From the IMG/VR virus record IMGVR_UViG_3300021426_000040: a stretch of DNA of 37,706 nt. The stretch is one strand, 5' to 3'. Made by a program: the position numbers and the translations under genes. Origin of the DNA: a virus. This document shows positions 1,148-3,931 of this stretch, one piece after another. The notes beneath the pieces are model-generated. The model was not told where the DNA came from. It saw only the letters and a list, made by a program, of their open reading frames with translations, and ran no database searches. The first letter of the stretch is position 1, and each line of letters begins with the position of its first letter.

Positions 1148-1177
1148 TTGCCTTAAACGTGCCAATCGTGATATTAT
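1148..1177 (+). promoter_or_regulatory. Candidate sigma-A promoter: TTGCCT, 18-nt spacer, TGaTATTAT (extended -10)
   Basis: TTGCCT at 1148-1153, TG at 1169-1170, TATTAT at 1172-1177. It is divergent from int. Confidence 0.35.
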
Positions 1178-1211
1178 TGAGTACGTAAAAGGACTTTATG
1201 TGATAGTTTCT

Positions 1212-1239
1212 TTTATATGAGGTATTGATAGTACCTCAA
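1212..1239 (-). promoter_or_regulatory. Candidate int promoter: TTGAGG, 16-nt spacer, TATAAA (read on the minus strand)
   Basis: -35 at 1239-1234 and -10 at 1217-1212, about 90 nt upstream of the int ATG. Confidence 0.3.
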
Positions 1240-1243
1240 TCTT

Positions 1244-1277
1244 ACTCTCCTGTTGGTAGCAGGGGAGTTTTTTATTT
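1244..1277 (+). terminator. Intrinsic terminator with no upstream plus-strand gene
   Basis: 9-bp stem ACTCTCCTG / CAGGGGAGT (one G.U pair), 7-nt loop, followed by TTTTTATTT. Confidence 0.6.
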
Positions 1278-1281
1278 GCAT

Positions 1282-1314
1282 AAAGCAAAAGCCCCTTATC
1301 TTTTGATAAGGAGC
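1282..1314 (-). terminator. Intrinsic terminator downstream of the S24 remnant
   Basis: Stem CCTTATC-tttt-GATAAGG, extended by GC pairs. The minus-strand RNA continues UUUUGCUUU. Confidence 0.45.
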
Positions 1315-1403
1315 TTTACTAACCGCATCAGGTGCAGTCATTTCTGTTCCTTATCATTATATACATCAAAAAAGATTTTATCAATGCTTTTTAAATCCAC
1401 ATC

Positions 1404-1631
1404 TTATATTACATCACTTTGAAAAGCGACGGCTCTTCCGATAACCCTAACTTGATTCAACTGCTCACCAGTAAGGATTATATCCTGATACTTTGGATTC
1501 TCAGGCTTTAGAATAACTAGATTCTGTTCACGATAGTAGAAGAATCTTTTTAGTGTAGCCTCATCATCAATGATCACTACAGCAATCGCTCCATTTTCTA
1601 CTATGTCTGTTTTCTTCCATCTTTCCTCCAA
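1404..1631 (-). pseudogene. Remnant of a LexA/CI-type repressor: only the C-terminal part of an S24 peptidase domain
   Basis: The 75-codon ORF ..ATLKRFFYYREQNLVILKPENPKYQDIILTGEQLNQVRVIGRAV.. aligns with the C-terminus of the intact repressor at 2755-3399 (..ATCKKFRQGETFIQLIPMNPSYDPIVIDLNNTNFRVIGIL..). It has no HTH and no Ser (GDSM) motif. Its only start is a TTG buried in a GGAGG, and a terminator lies directly upstream. Confidence 0.6.
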
Positions 1632-1633
1632 AC

Positions 1634-1661
1634 AAAAAACACCAGCTTTCTAGGCTAGTGT
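1634..1661 (-). terminator. Strong intrinsic terminator, best on the minus strand
   Basis: Minus-strand RNA forms ACACUAGC-cuagaaa-GCUGGUGU (8 bp with one G.U) followed by UUUUUGUU. On the plus strand the same stem has a C.A mismatch. Confidence 0.65.
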
Positions 1662-1830
1662 TTTTAATGAGTGCTAGCGAGTGCATCAGATGACTGACCA
1701 CTCCACCCATAGGATACTTGATGCGTCCCCTCCAGGGTCATGGCTGAGCAGGCCAGGGGATACGGTGCTAGCTCCGTATTCGCTTTCTTGCGAACATGTT
1801 ATTATTAACACTAGTGATATTCAGTTGTAA
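1634..1830 (-). ncRNA. Candidate ~195-nt structured non-coding RNA
   Basis: Bounded by a candidate promoter (1837-1865) and the terminator (1634-1661). A GC-rich core at about 1670-1795 sits in AT-rich surroundings. It contains helices GCATCA/TGATGC, TCCCCT/AGGGGA, TTCGC/GCGAA and a duplicated GTGCTAGC. No ORF has an SD. Confidence 0.25.
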
Positions 1831-1836
1831 AGCATT

Positions 1837-1865
1837 ATTATATTTTTTTGGATCCTAGAATTCAT
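1837..1865 (-). promoter_or_regulatory. Candidate promoter: ATGAAT, 17-nt spacer, TATAAT (read on the minus strand)
   Basis: Consensus -10 TATAAT at 1842-1837 and a weak -35 at 1865-1860. Confidence 0.3.
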
Positions 1866-1911
1866 TTATGGCCATTAGGCACAGCATAAAACGCCTTCAT
1901 GGGTAAAATAT

Positions 1912-1935
1912 TGTGTTCTTAAATGTGTTCTTAAA
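1912..1935. repeat. Perfect tandem duplication of the 12-mer TGTGTTCTTAAA
   Basis: 1912-1923 is identical to 1924-1935. Confidence 0.9.
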
Positions 1936-1993
1936 TATTATCTTTAGTTATGTAGAACATTGCACTACGCTGTAATTAATCTAAATTACAGGT

Positions 1994-2077
1994 AAAATGA
2001 AAGAGCCCTCACAGGGAGGACTCTTCTTCAGTGGCGCAATGGCCGTTGTGTTTAACAGTGGCGTATAGCCGTTGTTC
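1994..2077 (-). ncRNA. Candidate ~80-nt small RNA carrying two tandem ~25-nt repeats, directly downstream of the MazF-like gene
   Basis: Near-consensus promoter at 2084-2112. Repeats TTGAACAACGGCTATACGCCACTG and TTAAACACAACGGCCATTGCGCCACTG (minus-strand reading, 2079-2029). Terminator hairpin AGAGTCCTC-cctgt-GAGGGCTCT plus TTCATTTT at 2024-1994. Confidence 0.35.
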
Positions 2078-2079
2078 AA
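2029..2079. repeat. Two imperfect tandem direct repeats of 27 and 24 bp
   Basis: Plus strand: CAGTGGCGcaatgGCCGTTGTgTTtAA followed by CAGTGGCGtataGCCGTTGTTcAA. Confidence 0.85.
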
Positions 2080-2083
2080 CTGT

Positions 2084-2112
2084 ATATTATCCTATAACTG
2101 AAGATTTGTCAA
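2084..2112 (-). promoter_or_regulatory. Near-consensus sigma-A promoter: TTGACA, 17-nt spacer, TAATAT
   Basis: -35 TTGACA at 2112-2107 and -10 TAATAT at 2089-2084. It begins 29 nt after the toxin stop codon. Confidence 0.5.
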
Positions 2113-2140
2113 TCCCCTTGATTTACCTGGCTTTTGCCAC

Positions 2141-2674
2141 TTATTTCTTATTTGATTTATCTTTTACAAATAGCTCAATTAACTTAGATTCAATCAAATC
2201 AAGTATCAGGTCATCAGCAATCAATTTCTTTAGTGGGTCATATTTACTTGTTGGTGGTAGGATTTTGTATTTACTTATCGTTGTAATGTTCTGAACAAGA
2301 GCGTAGGACCTCTTATTCTTTTTGATATACATTTCGGCAATATCTTTTAATTCGTTCAGGTTTTTCGTTACTTGATTAATATCTTCTTCGTTATATTGCA
2401 GTCCGTTGTCATCTAGATCTTGGAATATTCTTGTGAATTCTTCTAGTTGACTAATGAGTAATGGGAATATTTGTTTGGATACTATGTTTCCGACATCTAA
2501 ATAATACGCTTTATTCTTAGAACTCAACGGAACGACTGTAAGAACACCATTTCCTGGTGAATCTTTCTTTGTAAGGACAATCGCGAAATGCTTTCCTCTT
2601 AGTTCGCTTCCTGTTGAAGGATTGAAGTTAACAAGGATAATTTGTCCTCTTTTGTACTTTTGAAACCTAGTCAT
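2141..2674 (-). CDS. PemK/MazF-fold toxin-like protein (177 aa) with a ~55-60 aa helical insertion and no adjacent protein antitoxin
   Basis: SD AAGAGGT lies 6 nt before the ATG at 2674, so the track start at 2710 is unlikely. KRGQIILVNFNPSTGSELRGKHFAIVL, LTVVPLSS, SYALVQNITTISKYKI and IADDLILDLIESKLIELF match MazF/EndoA blocks ([43 protein letters not shown]). Confidence 0.7.
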   Translation of the reverse strand: MTRFQKYKRGQIILVNFNPSTGSELRGKHFAIVLTKKDSPGNGVLTVVPLSSKNKAYYLDVGNIVSKQIFPLLISQLEEFTRIFQDLDDNGLQYNEEDINQVTKNLNELKDIAEMYIKKNKRSYALVQNITTISKYKILPPTSKYDPLKKLIADDLILDLIESKLIELFVKDKSNKK

Positions 2675-2754
2675 GAATTTACCTCTTTTTTTGAAATGAT
2701 GATTTGTCAAATTTAAAAACGCTTAGCTGTTTGTAAAGCTGTTTTATAAAATCC

Positions 2755-3399
2755 CTAGAACTCCTTTATGGCCCTCTTGAGGATGCCGATCACGCGAAAG
2801 TTTGTGTTGTTCAGGTCAATTACAATGGGATCGTAGCTGGGATTCATGGGAATGAGCTGGATGAAGGTCTCGCCCTGCCTGAACTTCTTGCATGTCGCTA
2901 TGCCGTCGTCTATGCAGAACGAACCGATCTGTCCGCTCTCTATTGAGCTGGACTTCTTGAATATGAGAAGGTCTCCGTCGTTTATGCCGGCATTGATCAT
3001 GGAGTCACCGCTTGCGATCTGGGCGAAGTAATCGGATTCGGAGCCGGCAAGCCCGTTGGAAACGACCTCTATCATATCGACAAGGTTGTCATCAACGAAC
3101 ATGCCGTTTCCACATGAGATGTCACCATATAGCGGAATGGTGATGAATGAGATGGGATGCGGTGCGCTGAGGTTGGATGGCTTGTTTTCAACTAGATCAG
3201 ATTTTTCTATTCCAAAATAATTGGCAAGCATTTCAATCTTGTCTATTCGCGGATATGTTTTAGCGTTGAGCCAATCTGCCAAAGTTGTATAAGCAATACC
3301 TAAAGAAGACGATAATTGATTTCTTGAAACATTGTTCTTGTTCATATAGTACTTGAGATTATTAGCCATTGTTTTCTTATTTCCTAGATTATTATTCAT
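2755..3399 (-). CDS. CI/LexA-like prophage repressor: N-terminal XRE HTH plus C-terminal S24 peptidase
   Basis: HTH: NVSRNQLSSSLGIAYTTLADWLNAKTYP. S24: SGDSM (Ser), CKKF (Lys), and a candidate cleavage site in GLAGSE. SD GAGGTG lies 6 nt before the ATG at 3399; the track GTG at 3408 is part of the SD. Confidence 0.85.
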   Translation of the reverse strand: MNNNLGNKKTMANNLKYYMNKNNVSRNQLSSSLGIAYTTLADWLNAKTYPRIDKIEMLANYFGIEKSDLVENKPSNLSAPHPISFITIPLYGDISCGNGMFVDDNLVDMIEVVSNGLAGSESDYFAQIASGDSMINAGINDGDLLIFKKSSSIESGQIGSFCIDDGIATCKKFRQGETFIQLIPMNPSYDPIVIDLNNTNFRVIGILKRAIKEF

Positions 3400-3417
3400 A
3401 AAGTTCACCTCAAGATA

Positions 3418-3446: not shown

Positions 3447-3463
3447 TAAAAATAGAATAAATT

Positions 3464-3476
3464 ACGGAAATACCGT
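3464..3476. promoter_or_regulatory. Operator-like site O1, ACGGAAATACCGT (ACGG-N5-CCGT)
   Basis: Imperfect copy of the 13-bp palindrome. It abuts the -35 of the rightward promoter. Confidence 0.5.
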
Positions 3477-3503
3477 TGACATTACGGTTAAACCGTATAT
3501 AAT
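3476..3503 (+). promoter_or_regulatory. Early rightward promoter (PR-like): TTGACA, 16-nt spacer, TATAAT
   Basis: TTGACA at 3476-3481 and TATAAT at 3498-3503. The spacer is almost entirely the operator palindrome. Confidence 0.65.
3483..3497. promoter_or_regulatory. Operator O2, TACGGTTAAACCGTA (perfect 15-bp palindrome)
   Basis: Lies within the spacer of the PR-like promoter. Confidence 0.65.
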
Positions 3504-3687: not shown

Positions 3688-3903
3688 TTGAATTCGATTG
3701 AAAAATATACACTTAAGACTGCGAGAGAAAAAGCTGGACTAAAGCAAAGCGAAGCAGCTGAAGAATTAAACATTAGTGTAGATACTCTTTCAAACTACGA
3801 AAGAGGAAAAACGTATCCAGATGTTCTATTAATCAAAAAGATAGAAGATTTATACAACGTTAATTACAATCAAATTATTTTTTTGAACAAAAATAACGGT
3901 TAA
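3688..3903 (+). CDS. Cro-like XRE-family HTH regulator (71 aa, TTG start)
   Basis: SD AAAGGGGGTG 6-7 nt upstream. HTH: LKQSEAAEELNISVDTLSNYERGKTYP. It is divergent from the repressor. Confidence 0.8.
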   Translation: MNSIEKYTLKTAREKAGLKQSEAAEELNISVDTLSNYERGKTYPDVLLIKKIEDLYNVNYNQIIFLNKNNG

Positions 3904-3908
3904 ACCGT
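3896..3908. promoter_or_regulatory. Operator O3, ACGGTTAAACCGT, an exact copy of the O2 core
   Basis: Overlaps the cro stop codon (3901-3903), 24 nt before the antirepressor ATG. Confidence 0.55.
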
Positions 3909-3931
3909 AATTTAAATATTGGAGGCAGTAC

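Follow-up and report, generated by a model that had tools for sequence, protein, structure and literature searches.

Type III toxin-antitoxin systems combine toxins of a MazF/Kid-like fold with repeat RNAs that inhibit them, and roles in abortive infection have been reported; in their layout a single promoter is followed by the RNA repeats, a Rho-independent terminator and then the toxin gene (PMC5086642). Their repeats are pseudoknots of 34-45 nt and their toxins belong to ToxN, CptN and TenpN. Type II MazF and type III ToxN-like toxins have a common fold without sequence similarity. The catalytic residues of MazF are an Arg (Ec R29, Bs R25, Kp R28) and a Thr (T52, T48 and T51, respectively) (PMC8086154). 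Inhibition of a prophage toxin by RNA has also been described for AbiF of C. difficile, whose antidote is an ncRNA carrying two conserved motifs (bioRxiv 10.1101/2025.04.15.648962), while the solitary MazF-mx of Myxococcus has its antitoxin, MrpC, encoded elsewhere, according to the passage of PMC4257102 in which it is cited.

We analysed a locus in a 37,706-nt stretch of viral DNA (IMG/VR record IMGVR_UViG_3300021426_000040; hereafter the window), where the gene for a 177-aa protein lies behind a phage repressor gene and is followed by a predicted small RNA gene (Table 1). We give about even chances to the reading that this locus is a type III-like protein-RNA toxin-antitoxin or abortive-infection cassette within a lysogeny module, built on a PemK-family protein and arranged in the reverse of the ToxIN order. 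With type II MazF/PemK toxins (Kid, EndoA) the family of this protein shares PF02452, the fold, the sequence blocks of Bacillus MazF on both sides of an insertion, a basic core and a Ser or Thr at the Thr51/52 position, but it differs in a helical insertion of 34-116 aa in the beta4-beta5 loop, in His-Phe/Tyr for Arg-Pro, in the lack of a MazE/PemI gene, in its lysogeny-module slot and in a dedicated downstream small RNA gene. With type III systems (ToxIN) it has in common a protein of MazF/Kid-like fold, a predicted repeat small RNA and a terminator; here, however, the protein is PemK, its gene is followed by a separate strong promoter, the repeats and the terminator, and the RNA consists of two simple hairpins. 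AbiF and its RNA, RCd22, resemble the locus in type III-like logic, with a prophage toxin and an adjacent, directly binding ncRNA that carries two motif copies, but AbiF is of an unrelated family (Abi_2/AbiD/F, HEPN-like) and is experimentally validated, whereas the present family is known from sequence. MazF-mx and the inactive staphylococcal PemK-Sa6 (PMC11915791) are likewise examples of MazF/PemK genes without an adjacent protein antitoxin or without canonical catalytic residues, but neither is known to have the insertion, to lie in a prophage slot or to be linked to a small RNA.

Table 1. Coordinates of the features of the locus in the window
Feature	Coordinates	Strand	Details	Basis
CI-type repressor gene, XRE HTH + Peptidase_S24	2755..3408	-	first gene of presumed operon	Pfam, PHROG
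Intergenic gap	2675..2754	-	80 nt, without terminator or small ORF	terminator scan, ORF list
PemK/MazF-fold protein gene	2141..2674	-	177 aa	translation, Pfam, PHROG, AlphaFold2, Foldseek
His29 codon	2588..2590	-	aligned with catalytic Arg of canonical MazF	homologue alignment, profile-to-PDB alignment
Inserted helical hairpin	2315..2488	-	aa ~63-120; helices 64-89 and 96-118; beta4-beta5 loop	AlphaFold2
Sigma-70-type promoter of small RNA	2084..2112	-	-35 TTGACA 2112-2107; 17-nt spacer; -10 TAATAT 2089-2084	promoter scan
Hairpin 1 of small RNA	2054..2076	-	AACAACGGC-TATAC-GCCACTGTT	folding, covariance-model match
Hairpin 2 of small RNA, repeat of hairpin 1	2029..2048	-	CAACGGC-CATTGC-GCCACTG	folding, covariation in relatives
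Intrinsic terminator of small RNA	1994..2026	-	11-bp stem and U-rich tail	terminator scan

Fold, insertion and active site of the 177-aa protein

The gene starts with the ATG at 2674, and sequence inspection places a Shine-Dalgarno motif (GAGG) about 8 nt upstream of it. All of the MazF sequence blocks that an earlier note on this DNA had quoted are found in the translation. The Pfam model PemK_toxin (PF02452) matched the N-terminal half only (aa 8-57; E=1.4e-11, 45 bits, with a curated cut-off of 23.1 bits); the MazF alignment of the C-terminal half was obtained using the family profile, with which Bacillus MazF aligns on both sides of the insertion ('KRGqi..GsE..g.HfAiVL' and 'SyAlvqqItTISKlRI'). 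Among the PHROG profiles, phrog_1412 was matched by aa 3-171 on profile positions 55-236 of 237 (E=6.8e-41). The label of this profile, 'antitoxin mazE-like' in the moron category, conflicts with the MazF, i.e., toxin, fold of the protein.

AlphaFold2, supplied with 59 homologues, modelled the protein with a pLDDT of 92.3 and a pTM of 0.84 as a MazF/CcdB-type beta-barrel with a C-terminal helix, the strands comprising residues 11-16, 28-33, 44-51, 59-62, 123-125 and 131-134 and the third helix, after the two of the insertion, residues 155-169. When this model was compared with the PDB by Foldseek, the 50 matches listed, out of 278 at E <= 10, were without exception MazF/PemK-family toxins, with a probability of 1.00 and a TM score of 0.61-0.76 on the target. 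The MazF/PemK fold with a helical insertion that had been proposed from the sequence is thus borne out by the model, by Foldseek and by the profile alignment, and structure prediction of the protein alone, which the earlier note had named as a check, returned a MazF fold. As modelled, the protein is MazF-type toxin-like and of the PemK family, with an extra helical arm. At E<=1 the Pfam search returned PemK_toxin alone besides noise, and none of ToxN/AbiQ, CptN or TenpN; sequence and fold searches of the PDB returned MazF, with ToxN, AbiQ and CptN absent among the matches listed, and none of the PADLOC-DB v2 defence-protein models matched the protein at E<=0.1.

The insertion is universal in the family and is the variable, acidic and least conserved part of the protein, with a column conservation of 0.27-0.41 against 0.60-0.81 in the core and a median net charge of -2 to -3 against +7. 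The 177-aa protein is a short form, and most family members add an N-terminal two-helix extension in which no Pfam domain was found. One explanation of such a protein, corresponding to the insertion acting in cis that the earlier note had listed among its routes of neutralisation, would be a 'fused' toxin that is autoinhibited in cis, the acidic hairpin, joined by the two extra N-terminal helices in the long forms, masking the RNA groove in the way of the acidic MazE C-terminus until a phage-derived trigger displaces it, and the RNA being unrelated or secondary. An acidic insertion present on the basic core of every member points in this direction, as does its low conservation, which would fit a sensor evolving in an arms race, and the loop that it replaces, beta4-beta5, is one of three inferred substrate-recognition loops (PMC8086154). 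This explanation, however, leaves the RNA unit at 61 of the 63 loci described below without a role, and we consider it quite unlikely; masking in cis is in itself compatible with a protein-RNA cassette.

All 59 aligned homologues carry His where canonical MazF has its catalytic Arg, and H29 stands opposite R25 of Bacillus MazF in the profile-to-PDB alignment. The Pro that follows is Phe, Tyr or Leu in these homologues, so that the canonical Arg-Pro of MazF is absent from the family, and the catalytic Thr position is Ser or Thr in 54 of the 59. The loss of catalytic-site residues, which the earlier note had named as evidence that would refute its own assignment, is thus seen in part, at the Arg. 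Given that His has replaced the Arg throughout, 'toxin' is a deduced and not a given designation for this protein. A staphylococcal PemK with non-canonical catalytic residues, PemK-Sa6, is inactive and non-toxic (PMC11915791), and with this precedent and the missing Arg the family protein is possibly no toxin at all. The residues [S/T]51-S52-K53 together with H29 recall the ToxN active site (Tyr29/Lys33/Thr52/Ser53/Lys55), which is a resemblance only.

The same residues bear on the proposal that the protein is a catalytically dead RNA-binding regulator of MazF fold, which would bind leader-like RNA hairpins and thereby tune termination, int/excision read-through and lysogeny control. The replacement of Arg-Pro by His-Phe/Tyr in all members and the precedent of inactive PemK variants (PMC11915791) argue for a dead enzyme, whereas the invariant His, Ser, Lys and Thr at MazF active-site positions suggest that chemistry is retained.

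The predicted downstream RNA unit and its conservation

The promoter of the small RNA begins 29 nt past the stop codon and has 10 of 12 matches in the promoter scan, and the RNA is predicted to run from 2077 to 1994, with a length of about 84 nt, ending at a terminator that presumably also ends the cI-mazF-like transcript. Positions 2079-1990 fold with z=-3.55, and a covariance model, which is clade-specific and recovers only the window's own sequence class, gave a single match in the 37.7-kb window (2079-2026, 68.6 bits). Searches with Rfam families returned no match to the unit, and megablast and blastn of the region returned no DNA match among GenBank phages. The catalogued structured RNA that is named for its association with pemK in Bacillota is reportedly the pemK RNA motif of Weinberg et al. 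2017. Its model, RF02913, found no match at the gathering score in the window or 20 related loci, at E<=1 in 8 related loci or at E<=5 in positions 1150-2800 of the window; with E<=10, the 141-nt element of the window and a 191-nt segment covering the element of the related locus L003 were also without a match.

At 50% identity the family falls into at least 571 clusters, and 104 deposited Staphylococcus and Streptococcus phage genomes carry it; S. aureus phages 92, SA13 and Mh15 and pneumococcal prophages of the 34117/K13 type are among its carriers. The layout of promoter, two hairpins and terminator, counted as promoter plus terminator, follows the family gene at 61 of 63 distinct loci, whereas 15 of the 553 other ORF ends of these loci have it; it was present in all eight cultured Streptococcus and Staphylococcus phage loci examined. 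A promoter of 9 or more matches out of 12 is found in 62 of the 63 loci; at 10 or more, the count is 40 of 63, compared with 26 of the 553 other ORF ends. In six aligned relatives' loci the -35 motif TTGAC is invariant and a -10-like hexamer is kept in four; in the equivalent place the relatives have a terminator hairpin of different sequence. Two tandem hairpin repeats are predicted in the window and most relatives and are far shorter and simpler than ToxI/CptI repeats; folding of 52 distinct RNA variants gave exactly three hairpins in 39. When the window was compared by blastn with relatives of 49-60% protein identity, the RNA region matched at the DNA level and the protein gene did not.

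Base pairing is also preserved where the sequence changes. Hairpin 1 shows a compensatory G-C to A-U change in the related loci L016/L212, and the hairpin stems of Staphylococcus loci read GCCGC/GCGGC, GTCGC/GCGAC, GCCGT/ACGGC and GCTGT/ACAGC around a nearly constant 10-nt loop, TGAAATATTT, with TGAAACATTT in one. RNAalifold returned no structure on whole-RNA MAFFT alignments because stems of differing length fall out of register between clades, and for this reason an alignment of hairpin 2 only and the clade-specific covariance model were used. In the hairpin-2 alignment (MAFFT, sequence-based; 15 loci, with segments chosen by eye before alignment), 86.4% of cells pair, compared with 65.1+/-3.7 in shuffles (0/500), and 15 cells are changed on both sides, compared with 4.9+/-1.8 (0/500); the covariation score reaches 0.588, whereas shuffles give 0.199 and a slid pairing gives 0.279 at best. 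A unit of promoter, hairpins and terminator thus exists behind the family gene, is conserved and covaries. The earlier note had named a downstream repeat RNA as one possible route of neutralisation, and this route gains strong comparative support from the 61 of 63 loci in a sharper form, that of an approximately 84-nt unit with its own promoter.

It can be asked whether the unit is functionally tied to the protein at all. It might be an independent phage regulatory sRNA, a transcript-stabilising 3' element or a set of DNA sites for a dimeric protein, linked to the MazF-like gene by modular co-inheritance; neighbours in mosaic phage modules do travel together, and a palindromic DNA site would also give stem covariation. 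However, the linkage is kept down to 32% protein identity, across genera and with both flanks varying. In several loci the stop codon and the -35 box overlap, conservation of the loops (CTAGC, TATAC, CTTAGC) is asymmetric, and a promoter and a terminator bracket the repeats. An independent element is in our view improbable. The idea that the repeats are DNA operators is unsupported, since their sequence is unlike that of the operator-like sites of the cI/cro region (TTACGG-N4/5-CCGT; 3462, 3482 and 3896).

Three other candidates were set aside. The 12-nt tandem repeat (two copies, 1912-1935) of the earlier note lies outside the conserved unit, and nothing ties it to the module. An ACA, the sequence cleaved by MazF-type enzymes, precedes the hairpin in 24 of 84 units; this modest enrichment lends weak support to a conserved site, which was not used. 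An exact-pattern scan of IMG/VR with CAACGGCC-N2-4-GCGCCA was dropped as too unspecific, with mostly unrelated contigs among the matches listed.

Gene neighbourhood and a putative protein-RNA cassette

Upstream of the gene, the repressor matches Peptidase_S24 (7e-22), HTH_26 (1.5e-8) and HTH_3 (1e-7) in Pfam and PHROG 4, transcriptional repressor. The terminator scan found no terminator-like site in the 80-nt gap and the gap holds no ORF of at least 20 aa on the gene's strand, in agreement with the earlier observations of an unterminated gap up to the repressor stop codon and of no MazE/PemI-like ORF upstream. The operon-like position behind the repressor, likewise noted before, holds and is conserved: in a gene-neighbourhood survey, 44 distinct upstream same-strand neighbours included HTH_3 proteins in 25 cases, Peptidase_S24 in 17 and ImmA-type M78 in 5, the others including a PH-domain protein (S. 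aureus phage Mh15), a nuclease and a zeta-toxin-like protein. MazE or PemI was never among these repressors, ImmA proteases and assorted proteins, and no adjacent small protein antitoxin of type II (MazE/PemI; AbrB or RHH fold) was found. The description of the toxin as solitary is therefore right as to a protein partner and has to be amended for the conserved small RNA gene directly downstream.

The PemK-like protein is probably made in the lysogen from the repressor transcript. Exclusion morons located between int and cI are known from lactococcal Sie2009 and S. thermophilus Ltp, both of them membrane proteins or lipoproteins that keep incoming DNA out. The family resembles these morons in its genomic slot and lysogen-expressed logic, and differs in that a cytoplasmic RNase-fold protein with a putative RNA partner is encoded here.

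XRE-type HTH antitoxins occur in other toxin-antitoxin families, and it had been suggested that the S24 repressor itself is the antitoxin, its RecA-stimulated self-cleavage coupling SOS to toxin release. The repressor and PemK genes are adjacent and probably co-transcribed, and 25 of 44 loci have an HTH protein upstream. The immediate upstream partner nevertheless varies, S24 proteins accounting for 17 of 44, which leaves this route unsupported and, in our estimation, very improbable. With no conserved protein partner, there is no conserved protein antitoxin.

In Streptococcus, Staphylococcus and gut Bacillota phages the family gene lies between a repressor or ImmA gene and int. For the dead regulator discussed above, it is pertinent that int is the next downstream gene in 21 of 34 loci and that the promoter, hairpins and terminator are attenuator-like in layout. 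On the other hand, the RNA unit is kept at loci with another gene next to it (L030, L033, L034-group, L069, L088), in the window it lies about 880 nt from int with a second strong terminator (1668-1634) in between, and the promoter goes with the PemK stop codon rather than with int. Such a regulator is judged unlikely.

The small RNA gene is most likely the antidote of the PemK-like protein. In the cassette that we propose, the protein half would consist of the PemK/MazF fold with a basic RNA-binding core, His for Arg and the variable acidic helical hairpin, and the RNA half of the small RNA, which has a near-consensus promoter to itself and is made up of the two hairpin repeats and the intrinsic terminator. 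An abundant, short-lived RNA would bind the protein and hold it inactive in the style of type III systems; the protein is likely a dimer, with one RNA hairpin per protomer. If RNA synthesis stopped, owing to shut-off by a superinfecting phage or to loss of the prophage, the RNA would decay, and the freed endoribonuclease could arrest the cell, resulting in abortive infection, exclusion or prophage addiction. Transcription of the RNA, its binding to the protein, toxicity, RNase activity, the trigger and the biological role are what we infer from the comparisons above, and a search of the literature found no expression, binding or toxicity data for any family member. Antisense, type I-like control of the toxin mRNA was rejected, as duplex energies were no better than those of shuffles (18 loci, z -1.2 to +1.3); a protein-binding mode is favoured since the RNA has no complementarity to the toxin mRNA beyond that of shuffles. 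The cassette reading is weakened by a gene order opposite to that of every described type III system (PMC5086642), by the presence of only two short hairpin repeats, by the absence of a match in PADLOC and by the compatibility of the stem covariation with a palindromic DNA site.

We tentatively put forward, at a little below even probability, the broader view that the family forms a widespread uncatalogued type III-like toxin-antitoxin or abortive-infection class, characterised by a PemK/MazF-family protein with His-based chemistry, a helical sensor arm and a downstream two-hairpin RNA antidote. Equally tentatively, its hosts would be temperate phages and satellites, in whose lysogeny modules it would reside, and it would bridge type II MazF and type III ToxN. 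The hosts named here are Staphylococcus aureus, Streptococcus pneumoniae, S. suis, S. agalactiae and S. equi, and gut Bacillota. Should the RNA be the antidote, type III systems would gain a fourth toxin family, the first with a true PemK/MazF-family protein under RNA control, and this would provide, if true, a direct evolutionary link from type II MazF to type III ToxN-like toxins. Given that the family is common and sits in the position in which temperate phages carry exclusion genes, it could influence how phages compete, how stable prophages are and how phage therapy turns out in major pathogens. The hypothesis is directly testable with cultured S. aureus and pneumococcal phages. In databases the RNA is unannotated, and the family protein is named inconsistently as 'type II toxin', 'antitoxin mazE-like' or 'virulence determinant'.

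A PemK/MazF-fold protein with a helical insertion

The 177-aa protein belongs to the PemK/MazF family, both by fold and in Pfam. All the MazF sequence blocks that the earlier note had claimed are present in the translated ORF, and PemK_toxin (Pfam) is matched over aa 8-57 (E=1.4e-11; 45 bits, cut-off 23.1 bits). The MazF/ChpB models of NCBIfam match the same stretch with scores far under their cut-offs, and phrog_1412 (PHROG) covers the full length (E=7e-41). In a profile of 59 homologues, Bacillus MazF aligns with both protein halves, through the N-terminal block KRGqi...GsE..g.HfAiVL and the C-terminal block SyAlvqqItTISKlRI. The AlphaFold2 model from the 59-homologue alignment (pLDDT 92.3, pTM 0.84) predicts six strands and a C-terminal helix, with a helical hairpin (helices 64-89 and 96-118) placed between strands 4 and 5. 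When compared with the PDB using Foldseek, the best 50 of 278 matches (E <= 10) were all MazF/PemK-family toxins (probability 1.00, TM 0.61-0.76 normalised on target). Model and matches together bear out the helical insertion within a MazF fold that had been proposed from the sequence.

A word-indexed protein search yielded 124 relatives, IMG/VR viral contigs 326 family loci, GenBank phage records 104 (61 Staphylococcus and 43 Streptococcus), and an exhaustive profile search 571 clusters (50% identity) at E<=1e-30; the identical protein occurs on at least 24 metagenomic contigs. Source genomes of the relatives belong to Holdemanella, Coprobacillus, Longicatena and other Erysipelotrichaceae or Bacilli. 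The majority of the family is 230-300 aa long owing to an additional N-terminal extension without a Pfam domain, and the window's protein is the short form. One long form was modelled (pLDDT 88) and shows two N-terminal helices and a bigger insertion.

All family members have the insertion (34-116 aa), and no other part of the protein is so poorly conserved: column conservation is 0.27-0.41 there and 0.60-0.81 in the core. The insertion is also acidic, at a median net charge of -2 to -3, in contrast to the basic core (+7). Loops beta1-beta2, beta3-beta4 and beta4-beta5 of MazF are variable and have been inferred to shape substrate recognition (PMC8086154), so the insertion, lying in the beta4-beta5 loop, takes the place of such a loop. 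That the acidic insertion autoinhibits the toxin in cis seems distinctly improbable, and would be compatible with the RNA-based mechanism proposed below.

Residues H29, T46, P49, T132, S134 and K135 are invariant in the family, S52 is nearly so, position 51 is Ser or Thr in 54/59, and K53 does not vary within the short clade. By profile alignment, H29 occupies the position of the canonical MazF catalytic Arg and F30 that of the following Pro. The RNase activity and toxicity of Klebsiella pneumoniae MazF require Arg28 and Thr51 (PMC8086154), and a staphylococcal PemK with both positions non-canonical was inactive and non-toxic until both were restored (PMC11915791). If catalysis is retained, a different chemistry is therefore required. 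The catalytic-site loss that the earlier note had considered is thus partial: the canonical Arg is replaced, and the His, Ser and Lys that remain invariant at active-site positions would argue for a conserved active site.

A conserved two-hairpin RNA unit 3' of the gene

As the earlier note had stated, the 80-nt gap between the MazF-like gene and the upstream gene (2675-2754) carries no terminator-like site in a terminator scan, and no ORF of at least 20 aa on the gene's strand. The description of the toxin as solitary does not hold, since a conserved RNA unit lies directly 3' of the gene. Two alike units of ~20 nt, both folding as two-tier hairpins, sit between its promoter-like site and its terminator, and the 90-nt stretch containing them has a fold z=-3.55 (0/200 shuffles fold as well). 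A covariance model of this RNA class finds one match in the 37.7 kb (2079-2026, minus strand, 68.6 bits) and strong matches in 12 related loci, all just 3' of the gene.

Features of the module and of related loci (positions on the window unless a locus is named)
Feature	Position	Strand	Details
Tyrosine integrase	~1119 down to 1, then from 37579	-	376 aa; spans circular junction
Region just upstream of int	1213-1384	-	strong promoter-like site TTGATA-17-TATAAT (11/12)
Peptidase_S24 C-terminal fragment	1404-1631	-	75 aa, without HTH part
GC-rich stretch	1634-1812	-	~130 nt strongly structured, then terminator; fold z -2.9
Intrinsic terminator	1668-1634		12-bp stem, after GC-rich stretch
20-nt copy	1854-1873		non-coding; 18/20 with 2754-2773
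Tandem repeat	1912-1935		exact, 12 nt x2; TGTGTTCTTAAA on plus strand
Terminator-like hairpin, U-rich tail	2026-2000	-	downstream of promoter-like site
Hairpin unit 2	2048-2029	-	CAACGGC-CATTGC-GCCACTG
Hairpin unit 1	2076-2054	-	AACAACGGC-TATAC-GCCACTGTT
Promoter-like site	2112-2107 (-35), 2089-2084 (-10)	-	TTGACA, 17-nt spacer, TAATAT; 29 nt past stop codon
MazF-like ORF	2141-2674	-	start ATG 2674, GAGG before it; 177 aa
Inverted repeat	2163-2175 and 2725-2737		13 nt (12/13)
Repressor	2755-3408	-	HTH + Peptidase_S24; upstream neighbour
Operator-like sites (three)	3462-3496 and 3896-3910		TTACGG-N4/5-CCGT
Spy779816 (Rfam), L002	4185-4271	-	streptococcal relative
Spy779816 (Rfam), L079	4657-4743	-	streptococcal relative
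Spy779816 (Rfam), L001	4257-4340	-	streptococcal relative; weak
'Skipping-rope' RNA, L033	4782-4852	+	one gut-phage locus

No Rfam family, the pemK motif RF02913 included, matches the RNA unit at gathering score in the window and 20 related loci, at E<=1 in eight related loci, at E<=5 in window 1150-2800, or at E<=10 for the 141-nt window element and 191 nt of the related locus L003; the distinction from RF02913 comes from this covariance-model search.

Comparison of the window by blastn with phages whose proteins are 49-60% identical matched the RNA stretch and not the protein gene. In a six-locus alignment the TTGAC of the -35 box is invariant, a -10-like hexamer is present in 4/6 and the second hairpin is nearly invariant; the terminator changes in sequence and keeps its structure. 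The layout of promoter, hairpins and terminator follows the stop codon in essentially every family locus, in short and long protein clades and in 8/8 cultured phage loci examined, and the stop codon and the -35 box share bases in several loci. A promoter of at least 9/12 with a suitably spaced terminator after it was found at 61/63 family 3' ends, compared with 15/553 other ORF ends (>=100 aa) from the same loci, and a promoter of at least 10/12 at 40/63 compared with 26/553.

Folding gave exactly three hairpins in 39/52 distinct RNA variants. The apical stems vary by locus yet pair (GGC/GCC, AGC/GCT, GCTC/GAGC, GACC/GGTC, GGTC/GACC, GCCC/GGGC, GGAG/CTCC, GGAT/ATCC), with CTAGC, TATAC, CTTAGC, TTTAC and CTTGC as recurrent loops. 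Four staphylococcal phage hairpins (GCCGC/GCGGC, GTCGC/GCGAC, GCCGT/ACGGC, GCTGT/ACAGC) share the nearly constant 10-nt loop TGAAATATTT, which is TGAAACATTT in one of the four. In a MAFFT alignment of hairpin-2 segments from 15 loci, segments picked by eye beforehand from related sequences, pairing was seen in 86.4% of cells (65.1+/-3.7% in shuffles) and two-sided changes in 15 cells (4.9+/-1.8 in shuffles), neither being reached in any of 500 shuffles. The covariation score was 0.588, compared with 0.199 in shuffles and at most 0.279 with slid pairing, and three of the four pairs showed compensatory types. We consider it very likely that the RNA unit is a real element functionally linked to the MazF-like gene. 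An independent sRNA, or a DNA site, is quite unlikely in view of the tight linkage of RNA and gene down to 32% protein identity, the asymmetric conservation of the loops, the promoter and terminator that bracket the repeats, and the dissimilarity of the repeats to the cI/cro operator-like sites.

Genomic slot and proposed mechanism

The MazF-like gene of cultured phages is always on the same strand as the repressor, with the lysogeny repressor region on one side of it and the integrase on the other, as seen in S. pneumoniae 34117, S. equi Javan178, S. aureus Mh15, S. suis Javan573, S. agalactiae JX01, S. arlettae BM31 and S. pseudopneumoniae Javan433; for S. aureus PT1028, with neighbours named only ORF002/ORF011, the annotation does not reveal the context. 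Among 44 distinct upstream neighbours, HTH_3 occurs in 25, Peptidase_S24 in 17 and an ImmA-type M78 domain in five, the remainder being assorted (a PH-domain protein, a nuclease, a zeta-toxin-like protein); downstream, 21/34 neighbours are integrases (15 tyrosine and 6 serine type). The slot is conserved and the neighbouring protein variable, which disfavours the repressor as a dedicated antitoxin, one of the neutralisers suggested by the earlier note, and makes that reading highly improbable. In the window, Cro-like and antirepressor genes are divergent from the repressor.

A regulator that is not toxic, binds RNA and controls termination before int would suit both the slot and the lost catalytic Arg, but it is rather unlikely, as the RNA unit is kept where the next gene is not int, and the window has ~880 nt and a second terminator between the two.

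Across 18 loci, complementarity between the RNA and the toxin mRNA did not exceed shuffled controls and antisense control is therefore unlikely; a protein-binding role of the RNA is the simplest reading. Since a MazF/Kid-like fold is typical of type III toxins (PMC5086642), and the AbiF toxin of a C. difficile prophage is directly bound and neutralised by an ncRNA with two motif copies (bioRxiv 10.1101/2025.04.15.648962), we propose a type III-like pair, and give the RNA an even chance of being the antitoxin. A MazF-fold endoribonuclease, probably a dimer, would be expressed in the lysogen and kept inactive by the labile two-hairpin RNA. Each read-through of the repressor-toxin transcript would supply one set of hairpins and the separate near-consensus promoter extra RNA, a layout that would yield RNA excess. 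As to trigger and biological role, we infer that an arrest of RNA synthesis (superinfection or prophage loss) would release the presumably toxic enzyme; the variable acidic helical arm may tune recognition of the RNA or of the trigger.

Two defining features of type II MazF toxins, the catalytic Arg and an adjacent protein antitoxin, are missing here. The protein would work like type III toxins without being a member of those families, as its toxin family differs; the gene order is also the opposite, and a promoter of its own and far simpler repeats set the RNA apart. ToxIN reaches the same stoichiometric goal with repeats first and a terminator ahead of the toxin gene (PMC5086642). A literature search on the family returned annotations only, with no functional study and no mention of the RNA: 'PemK domain phage protein' and 'pemK ... 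virulence determinant' (PMC6507118), and a table entry (PMC11769447). The PHROGs label, 'antitoxin mazE-like', conflicts with the MazF fold, and no PADLOC model matches the protein. The main risk to novelty would be an earlier description of the RNA in a source beyond the libraries searched. The supposed solitary toxin has a conserved RNA partner, a finding that is real and more than had been stated; of the downstream repeat RNA suggested earlier, the linked two-hairpin RNA has comparative support, and the 12-nt repeat lies outside the conserved unit.

Other features near the module

Identical ends (nt 1-127 and 37580-37706) show the window to be a circular assembly with k-mer overlap, and the integrase is absent from the ORF listing because its gene crosses the junction. 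GC content is markedly mosaic, at 33-39% in the lysogeny/early region (1-15 kb), 50-58% in the structural genes (15-35 kb) and 51% at the integrase end.

The S24 fragment shares 95% DNA identity with the repressor-gene 3' end of phages from another group (L016/L019). The MazF-like protein of that group is only 60% identical to the window's, and the fragment looks like a recombination scar of lysogeny-module exchange. A possible second scar is the 20-nt copy of the repressor's last codons and stop. Rfam gives no match to the GC-rich stretch. Sister contigs keep it at 97% conservation, and there it is followed not by the S24 fragment but by a 280-aa ORF that lacks a Pfam domain; the tandem repeat lies between the small-RNA terminator and this stretch. 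The TTGATA-17-TATAAT site is followed by a basic ORF of 42 aa, whose ribosome-binding site is AAGGA, and by terminator-like hairpins, and the region may be a small excision/regulatory gene or another RNA.

Two of the operator-like sites are in the cI/cro intergenic region, overlapping a 12/12 consensus promoter, and the third follows the cro-like gene. The inverted repeat pairs the end of the MazF-like coding region with its 5' leader and, as one of 69 reported pairs, may be due to chance. Streptococcal relatives carry the Rfam sRNA Spy779816 on the other strand, in the interval from the two-hairpin RNA to int, and one gut-phage locus has a 'skipping-rope' RNA just downstream; the PemK-int interval seems to be a small-RNA hotspot.
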